Under the pieces are notes generated by a model. The model was not told the origin of the DNA and made no database searches. It worked only from the letters and a program-made list of their open reading frames with translations. 64,000 bases of DNA, from IMG/VR virus record IMGVR_UViG_3300036715_001865, positions 96,001 through 160,000 of that record; one strand, 5' to 3'. Numbering within the stretch: the first letter of the stretch is position 1; the number at the start of each line of letters is the position of its first letter. A program made the position numbers and the translations under genes. This document shows positions 20,076 through 62,241 of this stretch, piece after piece. This stretch comes from a virus.

Positions 20076-21893
20076 ATGTCGAAGGAACAGACAGTTTTAC
20101 ACGGAATCACAGTTGATTATTCAAGAGATAACAACTATGACATTATCGGGCTTGAACGGTTGCGTGATTCATACATGCAACAAGGTGAAGTAAGTCCACA
20201 AGAACGGTTAGCATACGTTAGTTACAAATTTTCCAGCAACCCCGAACATGCACAACGACTATATGATTATTCAAGCAAATTTTGGTTTGGATATGCGACT
20301 CCCATTTTATCATTTGGTAGAAACGGGTACGGTTTACCCATCTCATGCTTTTTAAATACCGTCACTGATAGTAAAGAAGGATTAGTGGACACCCAATCTG
20401 AAACTAATTGGTTAAGTATGATGGGCGGTGGTGTTGGAGTGTATTGGGGCATCCGTGGCCAAGACGAAAAATCAGTTGGTGTCATCCCCCATATGAAAAT
20501 ATATGACGATTCAACCTTAGCATACAAGCAAGGAACAACTCGTCGTGGCAGCTATGCTATGTATTTAGATATTAGCCACCCAGATATTATTGAATTCTTG
20601 GAGATGCGCAAAGAAACTGGTGACCCTAGAAGAAAGTGTCTTAATTTACACTATGGGGTTAATATCCCAAACACTTTCATGCAAATAATAGAAAACAGCA
20701 TGAAAGACCTCAACTTTGACGACTCGTGGGAACTAAAAGACCCTTCCACAGGAAAGGTTCATGATGTTGTCAGTGCTAGGTATTTATGGGAAAAGGTGTT
20801 AGAACTTCGTGCTGGACAAGGTAGGGGCGAACCATATATTCACTATATCGATAACAGCAACGATGCGCTTGATCCACACTTAAAAGCTCAAGGGTACAAA
20901 ATTAAACAATCAAACCTGTGTTCAGAAATTTTATTACACACAGATGAGTTTAAAACCGCTGTGTGTTGTTTAAGTTCTATCAATTTGGATCATTGGGATG
21001 AATACTGTGATAATTATCAATTCTTCAAAGATATTATGGAGATGTTGGACAACGTATTGCAATATTTTATTGATACTGCCTCACCTCGTATTAGTAGAGC
21101 AGTTCTATCTGCTGTGGAAGAAAGAAGTATTGGGTTAGGAGTAATGGGATTCCATTCTTACTTACAACAAAATGGTATTCCTTTTGATGGCGTGATGGCA
21201 AAAGTTGCAAATCTGCGAATATTCAAACAATTTCAACAAATGAGAGACAGAGCCAATCTTGAACTGGGAGCTGAAAGAGGCTCACCAAAACTGATGGAAG
21301 GTACAGGGAAGCGATTTGCCCACACTTGTGCATTAGCTCCAACTGCAAGTAATGCACTTATTTGTGGTAATGTTAGTGCTAGTGCTGAAATGTGGAGAGC
21401 TAACGCTTTTAGACAAGATACGATGAGTGGAACATTTATTCAAAAGAACACATATTTGGATAAGTTGATACATGAAAAAGTAGCAGCATCTTCTGATAAG
21501 TTGGACTATGATGAAATTTGGATTAATATAGTTCAAGACGAAGGTAGTATCCAAAATATTGATATTTTCACTGAATTGGAAAAAGACATTTTCAAAACTG
21601 CAGCCGAAGCTGATTCTATGTGGGCAGTTGAGCACGTAACAGATAGACAACCTTTTATTGATCAAGGACAGAGCTTTAATATATTCATTAGACCAGATAT
21701 AAGTATCAAAAGGTTGCATGCTATTCACTTTAGTGCTTGGAAGAAAGGAGCAAAGACGATGTATTATGTACGAGCAGAGAAACTTGCAAACACTGAGAAA
21801 GTATCACAACGGATTGAACGCCGAAGAATTGAAGATGATATCGATTTAGTGGCTATCGTAAACGACGAAGAATGTCTTTCTTGTCATGGTTAA
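20076..21893 (+). CDS. nrdA: class Ia ribonucleotide reductase alpha subunit, short form without ATP cone
   Basis: PISCFL, QSNLCSEI, ALAPTAS, TMYYVR, C-terminal CLSCHG. Confidence 0.96.
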   Translation: MSKEQTVLHGITVDYSRDNNYDIIGLERLRDSYMQQGEVSPQERLAYVSYKFSSNPEHAQRLYDYSSKFWFGYATPILSFGRNGYGLPISCFLNTVTDSKEGLVDTQSETNWLSMMGGGVGVYWGIRGQDEKSVGVIPHMKIYDDSTLAYKQGTTRRGSYAMYLDISHPDIIEFLEMRKETGDPRRKCLNLHYGVNIPNTFMQIIENSMKDLNFDDSWELKDPSTGKVHDVVSARYLWEKVLELRAGQGRGEPYIHYIDNSNDALDPHLKAQGYKIKQSNLCSEILLHTDEFKTAVCCLSSINLDHWDEYCDNYQFFKDIMEMLDNVLQYFIDTASPRISRAVLSAVEERSIGLGVMGFHSYLQQNGIPFDGVMAKVANLRIFKQFQQMRDRANLELGAERGSPKLMEGTGKRFAHTCALAPTASNALICGNVSASAEMWRANAFRQDTMSGTFIQKNTYLDKLIHEKVAASSDKLDYDEIWINIVQDEGSIQNIDIFTELEKDIFKTAAEADSMWAVEHVTDRQPFIDQGQSFNIFIRPDISIKRLHAIHFSAWKKGAKTMYYVRAEKLANTEKVSQRIERRRIEDDIDLVAIVNDEECLSCHG

Positions 21894-21956
21894 ACAATAA
21901 TACACACATAAGATGGTGGACACGATGTCCACCATCACTACCCAAAGGAATAACAA

Positions 21957-23006
21957 ATGACCAAAAAGAAAATTAAATTAACAGACAGTAGAGATGCTTT
22001 TAAACCTTTTCAATACCCTGAATTTTATGATTTGTGGCTTAAACATGAACAAATTCATTGGAGCCATTCTGTTGTGGCAATGCAACAAGATATCAGAGAT
22101 TGGAAAAATGCTCCGGATAACCAGAGAAATTTCTTAACTCAAATTTTGCGATTGTTTACCCAAGGGGACATCGATGTTGCAGGTGCTTATATTGATAATT
22201 ACCTTCCAATCTTCCCACAACCTGAAATTAGAATGATGTTGTTAGGGTTTGCAGCAAGAGAGGCAGTTCACATTGCAGCATATAGTCACCTGATGGAAAG
22301 TTTGGGTTTTGAAGACTCTGTTTACACAGATTTCTTTCAATATCAAGAAATGGCAGCAAAGCATGATTTTTTCAAACAAATTTCTGGAACAGATCATAAC
22401 CAAATCGTTCAACAAATGTGTGCTGTTAGTTCGTTTACTGAAGGTATGCAATTATTCAGCTCATTTGCAATGCTATTAAACTTTGGTCGTAATAATATGT
22501 TTCCTGGTATGACAAAAATTGTTACTTGGAGTATTATTGATGAAAGTTGTTTAATTAAGGATACAGAGGTATTAACCCCTACAGGGTGGAAACCAATTCA
22601 ACACCTTTCACTATCAGACCAGTTGCTACAATTTGACATCAATACTGGAAATACTGAATTTGTACACCCCACTAATCTAACACACACTACTAGAACAGAG
22701 TCATACGTGTTTGAGTCTGATGATATCTACCAACATACAACATCTGATCACAGGATGATAACAAAGAGTGGTGAAAAATTTGTGGATATTACAGCAGATA
22801 TGATAAATGAGGATAATAACCTATTGATAATATCTGGCTCTAAGTTATCAGGAGATGATATATTAACAGATGAGGACAAGGCAACTATTGAATTAATCAT
22901 AACTGCCCAATATCCTGTTCAATGGATTTATGACAAAATTCCATTTGTATCATCTGAATGGGCCCATTCAGCAGTAGAATATTATTTAATGTTGACAACT
23001 CGTTAA
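21957..23006 (+). CDS. nrdB: NrdB N-extein (197 aa) fused to the N-half of a split intein (152 aa)
   Basis: NrdB motifs up to WSIIDES; intein block A CLIKDTEVLTPTGW from 22548 and block B TTSDHRM. Confidence 0.9.
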   Translation: MTKKKIKLTDSRDAFKPFQYPEFYDLWLKHEQIHWSHSVVAMQQDIRDWKNAPDNQRNFLTQILRLFTQGDIDVAGAYIDNYLPIFPQPEIRMMLLGFAAREAVHIAAYSHLMESLGFEDSVYTDFFQYQEMAAKHDFFKQISGTDHNQIVQQMCAVSSFTEGMQLFSSFAMLLNFGRNNMFPGMTKIVTWSIIDESCLIKDTEVLTPTGWKPIQHLSLSDQLLQFDINTGNTEFVHPTNLTHTTRTESYVFESDDIYQHTTSDHRMITKSGEKFVDITADMINEDNNLLIISGSKLSGDDILTDEDKATIELIITAQYPVQWIYDKIPFVSSEWAHSAVEYYLMLTTR

Positions 23007-23068
23007 TTGGAGTATCATCGTCCAGTAATATAAATACATACACAAACCAAGTTACCACAGGAGAGTGT

Positions 23069-23917
23069 ATGCATTACATAATATACAAGACAACAAATAC
23101 TACTAATGGAAAGATTTATATTGGGTTACACAAACAACTTGCGTTAGATTTTGATGGATATTATGGAAGTGGAACAATATTAAAACGAAGTATTGATAAA
23201 CACGGAATTGATAATTTTAAAAGGGAGACATTGTTTGTGTTTGATACCTTAGCTGAAGTAAGAGCCAAGGAGAAAGAATTGGTAACTGAGGAGTTTTGTA
23301 CCAGGTCAGATAATTATAATATTTCTGTTGGTGGAACAGGAGGTAACACCACAGCAGGTTTAACACCACAACAGAAGATGCTCATAAGCGAAAAAACCAA
23401 ACAGGTAAAATTAGAAAAAGGCTCCAACATTTATAGTGGTGAGAAGTTAAAAAATGCCCAAATTAGAATGAAAAATATACGAATTCAACCTGATAATAGA
23501 GGGTTATGTAGGTCCCAGGAATTAAAGGATAGGTGGTCAACTACCAAAAAAGACAAACACCTAAAGTGGATTACAGATGGTGACACATCTAGGTTGATTC
23601 ACTCAACTGATATCATACCAAATAGTTGGAACATTGGTCGAGATCCTAACTATAAACGGTTTACTGCTCACACACAAGAATCTAAAAATATTATATCTAA
23701 AAAAATTAAAGGAGACAAATGTTATAATAATGGGATAGTCAATTTAAAGTTAAAAGTAGGACAATCACCTCCAGATGGGTTTAAATTAGGTATGATACAA
23801 CACCATCTTCCCAAACATTGGATAACCAATGGTACAATAAATAAAAAACATTTAACCAACACCTCTATACCAACCGGTTGGTATAGAGGTCGAACCATAG
23901 GAAAAAAATATGAATAA
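23069..23917 (+). mobile_element. GIY-YIG homing endonuclease between the intein halves
   Basis: YIIYKTTNTTNGKIYIGLH, YYGSG, YNISVGGTGG; WITDG/YNNG/WITNG repeats; GGAG RBS; start reassigned to ATG 23069; TATAAATA at 23029-23036. Confidence 0.9.
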
Positions 23918-24515
23918 CACAATTTTAGAAGCATTCAATACACTCGCCAATGTAGCAGGTGGTACAATAAAGGACAATCAGCTTATTAAAACCCCTACTA
24001 CTAAATTTAATAAACAACACATTACCCACGAGCCTTTAGAGTTCTATTGTGCTACTGTGCCTGGTACTGCATTTGTAATTAGGTCAAAAGGAAAAATATC
24101 AGTAACTGGTAATTGCCACTGTGAAGGTATGACCAAATTATTCAGAACATTCATCAAAGAAAATAGAGAAATTTGGACAGATGAACTAAAAGCACAGTTA
24201 TATGGCATCGCTGAAAAAATGGTCGAATTGGAAGATGGATTTATTAATTTGGCATATGGGGTAATGGACGGAAGTGAGTTTAAACTCCCCCTTTATAAAG
24301 AGGACATGCACAAATATATCAGATATATTGCTGATAGACGACTAATTGCTTTGGGGTTGAAAGGTATCTTCAAACACAAAAAGAATCCTCTGCCTTGGAT
24401 TGACGAAATGTTAGTGTTACCTTCACATAGTAACTTTTTTGAACAAGAAGAGAGCTCCTATAGCAAGGGCGCTCTTACAGGCAACTGGGATGACGTGTGG
24501 GGTACTGTGTCATAA
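23910..24515 (+). CDS. nrdB: C-half of split intein (68 aa) fused to NrdB C-extein (133 aa)
   Basis: FYCATVP..FVIR..GKISVTGN ending at 24113, then Cys +1 and HCEGMTKLF...NFFE of NrdB. Confidence 0.9.
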   Translation: MNNTILEAFNTLANVAGGTIKDNQLIKTPTTKFNKQHITHEPLEFYCATVPGTAFVIRSKGKISVTGNCHCEGMTKLFRTFIKENREIWTDELKAQLYGIAEKMVELEDGFINLAYGVMDGSEFKLPLYKEDMHKYIRYIADRRLIALGLKGIFKHKKNPLPWIDEMLVLPSHSNFFEQEESSYSKGALTGNWDDVWGTVS

Positions 24516-24543
24516 CTCGTTGATTTATTGACACGAATATAGT

Positions 24544-24580
24544 AAAATCCCAGTTAATACAAATTAACTGGGATTTTTTT
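24544..24580 (+). terminator. intrinsic terminator of the nrd operon, abutting the next start codon
   Basis: 15-bp perfect stem with T-tract; overlaps the -10 of TTGATT-N17-TAAAAT (24520-24548). Confidence 0.75.
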
Positions 24581-25663
24581 ATGGCTACAAAAACAGAAGC
24601 ATTCATCGGCAAGGCGTCAGCTATTCATCAACACAAATATGATTATACATTAGTTGAGTATATTAACAATTCGACTAATGTGATAATTATATGTCCCATC
24701 CACGGAAGATTTACTCAACGTCCAGGAAACCATTTAAGCGGTGCTCAATGTAAGGAGTGCTCAAAGCTCAATAGAGCCGCTACAAATTTAGAAAAATATG
24801 GCCATCCAAATATTGCTCACGGCACAAAGAAAGATAAAATATCAACTACCAATATCGAGCGGTATGGTGTATCACAATCTGCTGCAAGTTCAAATAACAT
24901 CAAAAAACGAAAACAAACATTGTTGGGTAGATATGGGGTAGATAATCCATCTAAAATCTTACAATTTCAAGAAAAACGAAAACAAACCTTTTTAGATAGA
25001 TATGGAGCTGATAACCCATCTAATGTATTGTTGTTTCAAGAAAAACGAAAGCAAACTTTTTTAGATAGATATGGAGTACCAAGCTCATTTAAACGTTTAG
25101 ATAGCATAGAAAAGAGTCGCAACACTTGTATACAACAATACGGAGTGCCACACCACACCCAACGAAATATTAGTCCAACAATTTTAAATAATATATCTGA
25201 TTTTGATTGGTTATATGACCAATATATCACTCAACAAAAATCAGCTACAAAAATAGCAATCGAGCTAGGGGTGACAACAAAAACAATATGCACTTACCTG
25301 AAGAGACAAGAAATAACATTACGAAGAATGGTTAAATTCTCGTGGATGTGCATTGATTGGTTGGATTCTATAATGGACAAAGATAACATATTAATTGTAC
25401 ATTCTCTCAACAGTGGAGAATACAATATACCAAATACCAAACTACATGTGGACGGGTTTTGTGAAGCAACAAATACTGTGTATGAATTTCACGGGGATTA
25501 TTGGCACGGAAATCCAACTAAGTACCACCCTGATAGACTTAATACTACTACAAATTCCACAATGGGTGAGCTATACAAAAAAACCATTGAACGGGAAGAA
25601 AAAATTCGAGAACTTGGATATGAATTGGTGATTATGTGGGAATCTGATTTTAACAACCACTAA
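24581..25663 (+). mobile_element. free-standing putative homing endonuclease, paralogue of 3241-4359
   Basis: CPIHGRF...CKEC; RYGVDNPS repeats; HTH; VDGFCEATNTVYEFHGDYWHGNP. Confidence 0.72.
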
Positions 25664-25686
25664 ATAAACCCCAATTGGGTTTTATT

Positions 25687-26518
25687 TTACCCCCTCTTCC
25701 AATAAAAGCCAATATATAACTTGTTGGCTTTTATTGCTCCAGATATCGCTCCACTATATAACCCAAACTGTTTTTTCAATTTCTCCCATAGTATTCCAAA
25801 CTTTAACAAGTTCACCATCTATTGTTAGTTGTTGAACTTGTTTTCCACTCCTTTTAGATGGAGTTAATCTAATATCATTTAACTCTTTTATGTTGATTAA
25901 TTTATTATCTAGTACATCCAAATCACCAACCAATCTCCAATAAAACCTCCAACAGTTTGATACTTATATTTTCTAACTGCTACGCTAATATTTCTCCAAG
26001 ATTTTATCTCCAAATCAATGCCTGCTTGTCTCGACGATTTCCATTCTTTTATAACTTCTCCTGTTATAGCATCTATTTGATAGATTTGTTTATCAGTAGC
26101 GTTTCCACCAGGGTTATTTTCTTTCATCTTTTGTTGATGTTGTTCTGTGTGTTTAGTAGGAATAATTTCTCCTGCTTGGATTAGTGCTTTTCTTGTTTGA
26201 CTTATTCTTTGTTGGAAGGTTCGTTATATTTGTGTTTATATCCTCTTCCCCCTGCCTCTAAATTTAAACACATTTTATCATTTAAGATATCTTCTGTTAG
26301 TATTTGATTTTCAACCAAAAATGCTTCTTCTCTTGTCAGACACATTTGTAGTATTTCCCTGGAAAAACATCTCTACCATATTTTTTGATGTAGTTTAACA
26401 TTTTAATACCAGAACCGAGGTAATTATCAGTTAGAATGTTGGTGGAATGAACCGCAATATAAAAATGTTGGGTTAATATACAAGTTGTTTTGTACACACA
26501 ATGGTATTGTTTAGTCAT
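25687..26518 (-). pseudogene. frameshifted GIY-YIG/NUMOD homing endonuclease
   Basis: VYKTTC..FYIAVHST...YLGSG; a continuous protein can be rebuilt with four single-base indels in homopolymer runs, ending ...GFYWKRG*. Confidence 0.8.
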
Positions 26519-33805: not shown

Positions 33806-33844
33806 AAAAATATCCATTAATTGATATTTTATTTATCACCCACA

Positions 33845-33870
33845 AACAAAAAACCACCCGAAGGTGGTTT
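33845..33870 (-). terminator. tmRNA terminator
   Basis: AAACCACC-TTCG-GGTGGTTT followed by a T-tract. Confidence 0.85.
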
Positions 33871-34140
33871 ATGTGAAGGTGTTTCTGTTTCCAAGTGTAC
33901 CTCCAATACTCATACCTACTTAGTTGCCTAAGCGGCTAGTGCATAATTTTCTGAATTTGCAGTTATATTTTTTATGCCATTAGATATTACTATCCAGAAG
34001 GTCATCTCTCTAGTTGCCGATCAAACTTATTCTACCCCAATCGATACCATGACATCCCCATAATTAGTTATTTGTGGAGATGGTGGGAGTCGAACCCACG
34101 TCTTGAAGCCTTTAATTTGATAGGAATTACAACCATTCAA
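33845..34140 (-). ncRNA. ssrA: circularly permuted (two-piece) tmRNA, tag ANSENYALAA
   Basis: T-arm GTGGG-TTCGACT-CCCAC and CATCTCC-A (34099-34075) precede GGGGATG (34059-34053); G3:U70 pair; tag ORF 33960-33928. Confidence 0.92.
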
Positions 34141-34146
34141 CTTTTG

Positions 34147-34154
34147 TATTTATA
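34147..34154 (-). promoter_or_regulatory. T4-late-like promoter of the tmRNA
   Basis: Exact TATAAATA just upstream of the acceptor piece. Confidence 0.7.
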
Positions 34155-34503
34155 CTATTCGAGTTTTATGTGCCTTAATATACTCATTTGTGAAATACTT
34201 TACTCTACCATCTACCATTTCACACAAGGTAGTAGGATGTATTCCCGAACCTACTGCAATAGTAAATTGAATATCAACCAATTGCTCATCGATATCATCA
34301 GTGGGCCGAACATAATCCATACCGGATACAAATATCCTATAAGCTTCAGTGGCTAAATTATATGCCAATTGATCTATAGCAATTTTTGTTTGGTTGGCAT
34401 CAATAGCTTGAATGGTACCATCTTTGATAATTTCTGTACACAATTCTTCCCAAGATTGTAACTCTTGATTGCTAATTTTAGTTGGTGTAGATGTATTGTT
34501 CAT
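34150..34503 (-). CDS. hypothetical protein
   Basis: ATGA-type coupling to the upstream gene; clean ORF. Confidence 0.65.
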   Translation of the reverse strand: MNNTSTPTKISNQELQSWEELCTEIIKDGTIQAIDANQTKIAIDQLAYNLATEAYRIFVSGMDYVRPTDDIDEQLVDIQFTIAVGSGIHPTTLCEMVDGRVKYFTNEYIKAHKTRIV

Positions 34504-58578: not shown

Positions 58579-59766
58579 ATGAGTACAGTACAGTGTGTAA
58601 TTGGGGCGATGTATGGTGACGAAGGCAAGGGCCTAATGGTTGATTACTTTGCCTCACAAAAACCTCTCAACAAAGTTGTTGTTAGATACAACGGCTCAAG
58701 TCAAGCAGGGCATACTGTTGTATGCCCTAATTCAACTCGACATATTTTTTCTCACTTTAGTTCTGGCACGTTCGTTCAGTGTGAGACACTATTAAGTGAA
58801 GATTTTGTTGTTCACCCAATTTTGTTCAAAAAAGAGTTCCTTGAACTGACATCTAAGGGACTTAGGCCATTGGTGTATGCACACGAAGATTGTTTGGTAA
58901 CCACCCCGTATGATATGTTAATCAACCAAATTATTGAATCTCGTCGTGGTAAATTCCGACATGGTTCAGTGGGTGTAGGATTTGGTGAGACTTTTGAGCG
59001 GGATTGTTATATGTCTATCAAAGTTTCTGACTTGTTTGGTAACCGCGATTCTCTCAAAGAAAGATTGATGCTAATCCGAGATCGTTGGGTTCCATCAAGA
59101 ATTCAGCGGTGTGAAGGTGAGCATGAGAAGTCTATGTTTGATGCAATCAAAAGTGATGCTCTTCTTAATAACTTTTTGTCTGATTGTAAGTTTTTTACAG
59201 ATAGAGCTAACATATTGTATTATGATAAATGGACACACAAAGATTTGATTTTTGAAGGGGCACAAGGTTTGATGTTGGATCAAACCTTTGGTTTCTTTCC
59301 ACATGTGACTAGATCTAATACTGGGTTAAAAAACATTATTAAAGTATTGGACCATTTTAAAGTGGAAGAATTGAGAGTAAACCATATCTCGAGAGCGTAC
59401 ACTACCAGACATGGCGCAGGTCCATTAGAATTTGAACAAGATTTTCCTGATAATATCATTGATAACACTAACCACGCGCATGTTTTTCAGGGTAATTTGC
59501 GTTACTCTCCATTAAATTTGGATGATATGCAAAATGTGATAAGTCAAGATTATGATAGTGTTCATGAGTTGCATAAGTATGACCTAGTTGAAGAAACCAC
59601 TATTACCTGTATGGATCAAGTTAAAGTAAATGACACAGTCCCACTTATTTTTAATGGTAGAATGCAACAAATACCAACCAAAGAATTTGAAGAAGGTATT
59701 AAAAACTCAGCAACCTATATGAGCTATGGGCCAACTCGTGACCATGTGTGGAGAGTGGTAGGATGA
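58579..59766 (+). CDS. purA: adenylosuccinate synthetase-like protein (PurA type)
   Basis: GDEGKG with Asp retained, QAGHT, FEGAQG, YTTRHGAGP. Confidence 0.88.
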   Translation: MSTVQCVIGAMYGDEGKGLMVDYFASQKPLNKVVVRYNGSSQAGHTVVCPNSTRHIFSHFSSGTFVQCETLLSEDFVVHPILFKKEFLELTSKGLRPLVYAHEDCLVTTPYDMLINQIIESRRGKFRHGSVGVGFGETFERDCYMSIKVSDLFGNRDSLKERLMLIRDRWVPSRIQRCEGEHEKSMFDAIKSDALLNNFLSDCKFFTDRANILYYDKWTHKDLIFEGAQGLMLDQTFGFFPHVTRSNTGLKNIIKVLDHFKVEELRVNHISRAYTTRHGAGPLEFEQDFPDNIIDNTNHAHVFQGNLRYSPLNLDDMQNVISQDYDSVHELHKYDLVEETTITCMDQVKVNDTVPLIFNGRMQQIPTKEFEEGIKNSATYMSYGPTRDHVWRVVG

Positions 59767-61358: not shown

Positions 61359-61395
61359 AAATAAAGAGCGGGTATACCACCCCCGCTCTTTATTT
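61359..61395. terminator. bidirectional terminator
   Basis: AAATAAAGAGCGGG / CCCGCTCTTTATTT between convergent genes. Confidence 0.8.
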
Positions 61396-62241
61396 GTTTA
61401 TTTTTTCAATCCTCCACCCCTTCCAACAACCTCTCTCCAATGGATTCCCGTGTCTAGCAGCTAATAAAAATTTATCAAACGGTAACTCTAAATCTTTACA
61501 AACTCCCCGTAAATATCCAGCTCCTATTAAGTCTCCACTTGGATTAAATACTTTACAGAACACAGCATTGCCATTTTTTTCACCTTGTCCACGCTTGTTC
61601 TTCTGCCATGTGGCTTTGCGCTTATCTATTAGGTCTGGTTGTTGTAGTGGGTGGGTATTAGATGTAAACATATCTGATAGTTGTTGTTTTCGTTCGAGTG
61701 TGTGAATATGCTTACCAGTTCTGGTTATAGCTCCTTTCTGGTGAGTTTCTGGGGTTGGTAGTGGAGGTCTGCAACCGGAAGCTAATGCTCTTTGTCTATA
61801 CTCGTCCCGAAGAGAGGGGTTGTTTTGAAATATTTGTTTCCTTATTGTGGACAGTTTTTCCTTGTGTTCATCTGATAGAGTTCGTCCAGATCTTTGAACT
61901 GACCACAATAATCTTGTATTAGATGTTGGTTGCCACCCTAAATTGGATTCTCCTCCTCGTGTGAGGTTATATCCATGTTCTGTTATAAAAGATTGATATT
62001 GAGTAATAAAATGAGCTTCCATTGTTTTTAGGGTGTGCTCTCCATCCAACGAACAATATATCACGTTAAATTCAAAGTTATCTATTCCATATTTTCGAAT
62101 TGCTTTATACAATGGACGATTATTTGTTTTTGATACCGTAATATGTTGATTCCATCTGGATATTGGGTTTTTTCTGTTAGTGTACCCAACATATAGCTTA
62201 CCATTAACTTTGTTGATAATCTTGTAAATATAATGTATCAT
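61390..62241 (-). mobile_element. GIY-YIG homing endonuclease with NUMOD3-like motif
   Basis: YIYKIINKVNGKLYVG, GYNLTRGG, LSDEHKEKLS; CATAAATA at 62269-62276. Confidence 0.88.

Follow-up and report, generated by a model that had tools for sequence, protein, structure and literature searches.

The element described here is a fractured nrdB gene, encoding the beta subunit of ribonucleotide reductase (RNR), whose two parts carry the halves of an intein and enclose a free-standing GIY-YIG endonuclease gene. It occupies positions 21957 to 24515 of a 64,000-nucleotide (nt) stretch of DNA (positions 96,001 to 160,000 of IMG/VR virus record IMGVR_UViG_3300036715_001865), hereafter the window. All coordinates are those of the window, and features lie on the + strand unless stated otherwise. 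The phage of origin is large and T4-like.

Closest described systems

The closest described system is AceL NrdHF, a naturally split class 3 intein from a phage-like contig of Ace Lake (Hoffmann et al. 2020, ChemBioChem, PMC7891396). It is located in the ExxH motif of an RNR beta gene, with the native flanks SIRDE / SMHVE, and a GIY-YIG gene lies between its N-terminal half (IntN, 98 amino acids (aa)) and its C-terminal half (IntC, 48 aa). It possesses an unusual Met-Cys-Thr triplet (M70/C124/T144) and lacks the penultimate His. Trans-splicing in vitro is efficient and occurs within minutes, and a crystal structure has been determined (PDB 6ZGQ) (PMC7891396). More generally, fractured genes were described by Dassa et al. 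(2009, Nucleic Acids Research, PMC2677866) for gp41, IMPDH, NrdA, NrdJ, DnaE and others; NrdB was not among the hosts. In these loci a free-standing GIY-YIG or Vsr-like endonuclease gene is situated between adjacent, same-strand, intein-bearing halves, the 3' end of the endonuclease gene overlaps the start of the IntC gene by 6-69 bp, and the sequence TATAAATA and a hairpin are found in the 5' leader of the endonuclease gene (PMC2677866).

The locus of the window shares with AceL NrdHF a homologous intein (by sequence, and by fold via a contiguous relative), an RNR beta subunit as host, the same ExxH iron-ligand motif, a phage-like source, the fractured layout with the GIY-YIG gene between the halves, the Met-Cys-Thr triplet, and a Gly-Asn C-terminus without penultimate His. 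The two differ as follows. AceL NrdHF begins with Ala1 and so has no N-terminal nucleophile, whereas the intein of the window begins with Cys1. The AceL intein is inserted as DE/SMH (the slash marks the insertion point) with Ser at position +1, whereas that of the window is inserted one codon downstream, as DES/CH, with Cys at +1. The AceL halves measure 98 + 48 aa without an insert, in contrast to 152 + 68 aa in the window, where a four-helix insert is divided 3 + 1. In AceL the host protein is fused to an NrdH/glutaredoxin-like domain that NrdB of the window lacks; such a fusion was found in the relatives P0110 and P0133. Compared with the fractured genes of Dassa et al., all of the following are present: two same-strand halves, an endonuclease gene between them, the TATAAATA/hairpin leader and the overlap of the endonuclease gene with IntC. 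The differences are the NrdB host and what looks, in the invaded intein, like the remnant of an older LAGLIDADG domain that was encoded in frame.

As the homologous case is already published, tested and crystallised, the locus does not constitute a new class. The first-pass annotation of the window named no example at an NrdB site, which is explained by the absence of NrdB from the hosts listed in 2009 (PMC2677866). Such an example does exist: the split intein of AceL NrdHF, published in 2020 (PMC7891396), interrupts this very ExxH motif, and related halves are common in metagenomes.

Organization of the fractured gene

The first open reading frame (ORF) of the gene (21957-23006, 349 aa) consists of the N-terminal part of NrdB and IntN. 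The N-extein (21957-22547, 197 aa, C-terminus ...TWSIIDES) matches positions 4-194 of the 281 in the Pfam profile Ribonuc_red_sm (E = 2e-40) as well as PDB 9DWS (E = 6e-46), and contains the first ExxH motif, the radical Tyr and the Glu of the second ExxH motif. IntN (22548-23006, of which 22548-23003 are coding) has 152 aa and ends in a TAA stop. The free-standing GIY-YIG endonuclease ORF (23069-23917, 282 aa) begins 62 nt after this stop, and its own stop overlaps the start of the third ORF by 8 nt (ATGAATAA, 23910-23917). The third ORF (23910-24515, 201 aa) consists of IntC (23910-24113, 68 aa, ending ...SVTGN) and the C-extein (24114-24515, 133 aa, from CHCEG), which matches profile positions 188-281 of Ribonuc_red_sm (E = 5e-17) and is 85-90% identical to intein-free NrdB proteins. 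The C-extein opens with Cys(+1)-His, and this His belongs to the second ExxH motif. The break thus separates the Glu of that iron motif from its His, and removal of the intein gives DES+CH. These two halves are the only matches to Ribonuc_red_sm in the 190-kb virus record.

Among the intein-free NrdB proteins of the collection the closest is P0012, which is 89% identical over the shared part and has the site sequence IIDESLHCEGMTKLF. IIDES + CHCEGMTKLF matches it residue for residue, with the +1 Cys replacing Leu, and the splice product is therefore colinear with the host protein. As computed from the ORF boundaries, the predicted product has 330 aa and a mass of 38.5 kDa. The break within E-x-x-H, as DES/CH, and a product of 330 aa and ~38 kDa had been proposed beforehand and are borne out by the colinearity with P0012. 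The position of the two intein-bearing pieces (21957-23006 and 23910-24515) on either side of a GIY-YIG gene, likewise proposed, is upheld by homology to the validated split intein 6ZGQ and by the conserved splicing residues. The earlier estimate of about 60 nt between IntN and the endonuclease gene, with IntC starting within the end of the latter, agrees with the measured 62 nt and 8-nt overlap.

The intein halves

IntN starts directly after the N-extein with Cys1-Leu-Ile-Lys-Asp-Thr-Glu-Val. The T-x-x-H of block B is present (Thr65-Ser-Asp-His68), as is Met70. In IntC, block F contains Cys47 (EFYCATVPG) and block G is Thr66-Gly67-Asn68, followed by the +1 Cys. A PDB sequence search with the N-terminal ORF retrieved NrdB structures plus 6ZGQ, the AceL NrdHF-1-1 intein. 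IntN matches the latter with phmmer at E = 3e-13 over 114 residues including flanking extein, with ~35% identity as counted from the alignment; IntC matches it at E = 0.04, with blocks F and G covered. The functional residues of the AceL intein recur at equal numbering (His68, Met70) or at aligned positions (AceL C124 at IntC Cys47), together with the Thr-Gly-Asn end and a +1 nucleophile. The Met-Cys-Thr triplet is accordingly present as Met70, IntC Cys47 and IntC Thr66, aligned to AceL M70, C124 and T144. By these sequence features the intein of the window is a member of the AceL NrdHF split-intein family. With tblastn, IntN also matches inteins in terminases, polymerases, RtcB and RNRs of many cultured phages.

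The net charge is -14 for IntN and +3 for IntC, so the halves are complementary in charge. A HINT fold is seen in the AlphaFold2 (AF2) model of the natural contiguous relative P0002, whose intein is 60% identical (predicted local distance difference test score 85-94). The best Foldseek match of this model is 6ZGQ (template modeling score 0.84 on the target), with many other inteins next. From this model, the two halves of the window would be expected to adopt a HINT fold. Because Cys1 and the block-F Cys are both present, a first step through Cys1 (class 1) and one through the internal Cys (class 3, as in AceL) are both chemically possible.

Relatives, insertion registers and tree

A word-indexed search with the IntN region retrieved three split relatives and one contiguous relative. 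The corresponding search with the IntC ORF retrieved ~45 clusters of IntC plus NrdB-C halves (185-215 aa), plus many intein-free NrdB proteins. More than 10 clusters of NrdB-N plus IntN halves were found, and these and the IntC plus NrdB-C halves, from independent metagenomes, are all broken at one site. A profile search of 1.8 billion representatives extended the set of split N-halves. It also retrieved contiguous proteins of two kinds: some of ~550 aa, whose intein has 222 aa (P0127, P0261), and many of ~630-660 aa, in which a large intein occupies this site. Between the window and its relatives, the extein parts are 85-91% identical. Viral contigs scanned with the IntN protein contained no relative. 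A back-translated QWIYDKIP pattern had 0 matches in viral contigs and 14 in metagenome contigs; by tblastn, no relative is encoded on any of these 14.

Two insertion registers occur, one AceL-like (DE/, intein beginning with Ala or Cys and ending in N/, then Thr, Ser or Cys and x-His) and one window-like (DE-x/Cys...N/Cys-His). Among the listed IntC-bearing sequences, 24 have N/TxH, 4 N/SxH, 1 N/CxH and ~11 N/CH. Ala1 is found in the relatives P0003, P0004, P0125, P0128 and P0129; it pairs with the first register in P0003, P0004, P0125 and P0129, and Cys1 pairs with the second in the window, P0001 and P0002. A tree computed from IntC plus C-extein places the window in a clade of six split N/CH sequences (support 100/99). 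The register label switches several times on this tree, and the contiguous P0002 is nested among split forms. Because this tree consists mostly of extein columns and has a midpoint root only, it fits P0002 as an ancestral form and as a re-fused revertant alike.

Within a group of metagenomic NrdB proteins (P0147, P0168, P0169, P0192, P0131, P0154, P0184), some have an intein at a second site, at residue ~100 in the first ExxH region, and some carry two inteins (849-1037 aa).

The additional helices of the intein

The residues by which the intein exceeds the AceL intein are the last ~51 aa of IntN and the first ~24 aa of IntC. In the contiguous P0002, and also in P0082 and P0127, the IntN tail joins the IntC head directly, with no GIY-YIG gene. 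The AF2 model of P0002, run with alignment A3, shows a four-helix insert at residues 212-222, 229-237, 240-252 and 261-273, and the break of the window maps to the loop between helices 3 and 4. Alignment A2, which placed the IntN tails wrongly on the C-terminus of NrdB, was kept out of the folding and served for its IntC part only.

The ~650-aa relatives contain two LAGLIDADG-like motifs (...LIALQADG... and ...E-x-x-x-WDGH...). The AF2 model of one of them, P0140, matches LAGLIDADG intein endonucleases (TliVMA, E = 3e-11; PI-PfuI; PI-SceI). Pfam did not recognise a LAGLIDADG domain in the ~650-aa relatives, and a PDB profile search with alignment A4 was dominated by NrdB; the LAGLIDADG assignment is based on the motifs, hhalign and the fold search with the P0140 model. 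Inteins of this kind (P0132, P0137, P0139, P0140 and others, ~630-660 aa) are cis-splicing, have homologous splicing blocks with the block-F Cys, lie at the same ExxH site and show both registers (DE/C or DE/A, and DEx/C). They differ from the intein of the window in being contiguous and in having a complete LAGLIDADG-fold domain, of which the window retains four helices.

With hhalign, helix 1 of the window-type insert aligns with LAGLIDADG motif 1. Helices 2-3 cover the stretch that runs up to and through motif 2, and helix 4 coincides with the final helix of the endonuclease domain. This placement is supportive rather than proof, since the flanking splicing blocks anchor the alignment. Mean pairwise identity is 0.40 in the IntN tail versus 0.43 in the adjacent core, and 0.62 in the IntC head versus 0.64 in the core. 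The break point is identical in all split relatives. From their sequence, the extra helices look like an old, retained, four-helix LAGLIDADG vestige that was cut 3 + 1 by the GIY-YIG gene. The long halves had been taken as a sign of a recent split. This explanation is rejected on account of the conservation of tail and head and the widespread, identical break point; the extra length is better explained as an old, constrained vestige, because the additional residues differ little from the splicing core in their conservation across diverged relatives, align with LAGLIDADG helices and share one break point.

The GIY-YIG endonuclease and its putative expression signals

The endonuclease ORF matches Pfam PF19835 (SegE-type GIY-YIG, E = 8e-6) and phrog_314 'homing endonuclease' (E = 2e-32). 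Its C-terminal half contains repeated P-x-G-W/F-x-x-G motifs of DNA-binding type. Identity to Seg-like genes of T4-like coliphages and Klebsiella phages is ~30%, and to ~40 full-length metagenomic relatives 40-57%; a PDB sequence search yielded nothing useful. Relatives of the endonuclease and split nrdB halves occur on contigs of equal size (P0276/P0006, 4379 bp; P0289/P0003, 81363 bp; P0283/P0073, 3318 bp). In P0315 (491 aa) a relative of the endonuclease is in frame with IntC plus NrdB-C without a stop, as a natural fusion or a read-through gene call. The equal-sized contigs (n = 3) and the P0315 fusion indicate that the nuclease family travels with the fractured nrdB locus.

The endonuclease ATG is preceded by a GGAGAG ribosome-binding site and, 33 nt upstream, by TATAAATA (23029-23036), the T4-type late-promoter consensus. 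The sequence that follows (23037-23071) forms a hairpin whose 3' arm pairs with the endonuclease start codon; the fold of 23036-23085 has a free energy (dG) of -8.3 and z = -2.4, and 1 of 200 shuffles was as good. By analogy with T4 and Aeh1, this hairpin is a candidate translational block of the endonuclease start in read-through early transcripts. Both nrdB halves would be made from such early transcripts, and the endonuclease from late transcripts that begin within the hairpin.

A perfect 30-bp palindrome (23861-23890; 15+15 nt, 100% complementary; dG -19.7, z = -4.7) is located at the 3' end of the endonuclease gene, before the AGGA Shine-Dalgarno sequence that lies 9 nt upstream of the IntC ATG. 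An exact 12-nt direct repeat, TGGTACAATAAA, occurs in the 3' region of the endonuclease gene (23830-23841) and in the IntC head (23960-23971), within a 38-nt repeat of 71% identity; it could be due to chance or to insertion microhomology. The window contains a second Seg-like GIY-YIG gene (61390-62241, - strand; phrog_314, E = 3e-33), which is only distantly related to the endonuclease within nrdB (33% identity over 96 aa).

Interpretation and alternative explanations

The locus is best explained as a functional fractured nrdB (probability roughly 0.85). Each nrdB piece would be translated on its own, fused to one intein half; the endonuclease gene would supply the start codon of the downstream half via the 8-nt overlap. 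The intein halves would then associate into a HINT domain, trans-splice and release a 330-aa NrdB with the DES-CH motif, which restores the di-iron site. The splicing activity is assigned by analogy with the homologous AceL NrdHF intein (PMC7891396). The free-standing GIY-YIG homing endonuclease, if active, would keep the cassette mobile. A LAGLIDADG endonuclease domain would once have been inside the intein, and the GIY-YIG gene appears to sit in its helix 3/helix 4 loop. A further proposal, that the intein is a mechanistic intermediate able to use Cys1 or the block-F Cys and that the vestige has been co-opted as a docking module for the halves, is tentative and on balance doubtful.

Several observations weigh against a functional trans-splicing locus. 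The IntC match to 6ZGQ is weak when taken alone. The penultimate residue of IntC is Gly and not the usual His, although the AceL intein is alike in this respect and yet active. The record is a metagenome-derived contig with an estimated completeness of 54%, and a second nrdB may be present elsewhere. TATAAATA is not more frequent in the window than expected by chance, with most copies just upstream of ORF starts, and both promoter and hairpin are read at the level of consensus.

Genes in pieces need not be spliced, and a documented precedent exists for the non-covalent assembly of a fragmented phage RNR subunit, nrdA-a/nrdA-b of Aeh1 (PMC3045599). Intein halves that merely hold the NrdB fragments together in this manner are considered very improbable here, as the break, with its ~220 intein residues, parts the Glu from the His of a single metal-binding ExxH motif, and Cys1, TxxH, the block-F Cys, the terminal Asn and the +1 Cys are all kept in the window and in relatives at 50-70% identity. 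An equally slight probability is given to a dead gene, in which nrdB was inactivated by invasion of the endonuclease and is decaying while the host RNR is used. Homing endonucleases do sometimes destroy genes, and the record is incomplete; however, both ORFs are intact with all NrdB metal and radical residues present, the exteins retain the high identity to relatives given above, and the arrangement is kept in many diverged lineages.

Rfam intron families gave no match at E <= 1 with permissive filters in 21000-26000; a weak, sub-threshold match to NsiR1 on the hairpin at 24538-24583 is probably just the hairpin. A GIY-YIG ORF within a self-splicing group I intron, with RNA splicing giving one mRNA for a contiguous, cis-splicing intein precursor, would suit the shared reading frame of IntN and IntC (21957 and 23910 are both 0 modulo 3, and removal of 23004-23909 stays in frame), the existence of contiguous intein relatives and the general occurrence, in nucleotide-metabolism genes of T4-like phages, of group I introns that contain GIY-YIG ORFs, but it is the least probable explanation of all. 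The first-pass annotation had already pointed to the little room for an intron core. The intron is rejected because there is no Rfam match and no room for a P3-P9 core (62 nt 5' of the ORF and 0 nt 3' before homology to the contiguous intein resumes), IntN has its own stop, IntC has its own AGGA and an ATG overlapping the endonuclease stop, and the homologous AceL arrangement works by protein trans-splicing (PMC7891396).

Neighboring genes

Immediately upstream of the fractured nrdB, on the same strand, lies its partner gene nrdA (20076-21893, 605 aa; RNR alpha subunit; Pfam Ribonuc_red_lgC, E = 3e-94, and Ribonuc_red_lgN). The nrdA-nrdB spacer contains an 11-bp perfect hairpin without a U run (21912-21936; dG -18.8 kcal/mol, z = -4.9), possibly an RNA processing or stability element. 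After nrdB-C, a terminator-like hairpin with a 15-bp perfect stem and a U run (24538-24583; dG -21.7, z = -5.2) closes the nrdA-nrdB unit.

Directly after nrdB-C follows a 360-aa ORF (24581-25663, + strand) with DUF7487 repeats (Pfam, E = 1e-23) and a match to phrog_3339 'homing endonuclease' (E = 4e-18). Its C-terminal ...FHGDYWHGNP... motif is typical of Vsr-like/PD-(D/E)xK homing endonucleases, and a PDB sequence search with this ORF gave no match. Judged from these matches, the RNR operon is probably flanked here by another free-standing homing endonuclease gene. Elsewhere in the window, ARAGORN identified a permuted transfer-messenger RNA gene (33837-34164, - strand) with the tag peptide ANSENYALAA, and a PurA/PurZ-like adenylosuccinate-synthetase homologue (58579-59766, + strand; phrog_1211, E = 1e-53) is part of a T4-like replication module.

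Significance

The locus is a complete, well-preserved phage addition to the family whose AceL member is the only class 3 split intein to have been characterised, and its variant features are of moderate interest for intein specialists. As a Cys1/+1 Cys member with helical extensions, the intein could plausibly serve as one more tool for ligation that is orthogonal to those in use. The family is common and varied, with Ala1 or Cys1, two insertion registers, a full LAGLIDADG domain, a four-helix vestige or no insert, and both contiguous and split forms; this series is usable for the study of class 1/class 3 interconversion and of the origin of split inteins. If the proposed intermediate with a co-opted docking module is true, the locus would be a natural record of an in-frame LAGLIDADG endonuclease succeeded by a free-standing GIY-YIG endonuclease within one intein. 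For the phage itself, the supply of deoxynucleotides would depend on protein trans-splicing.

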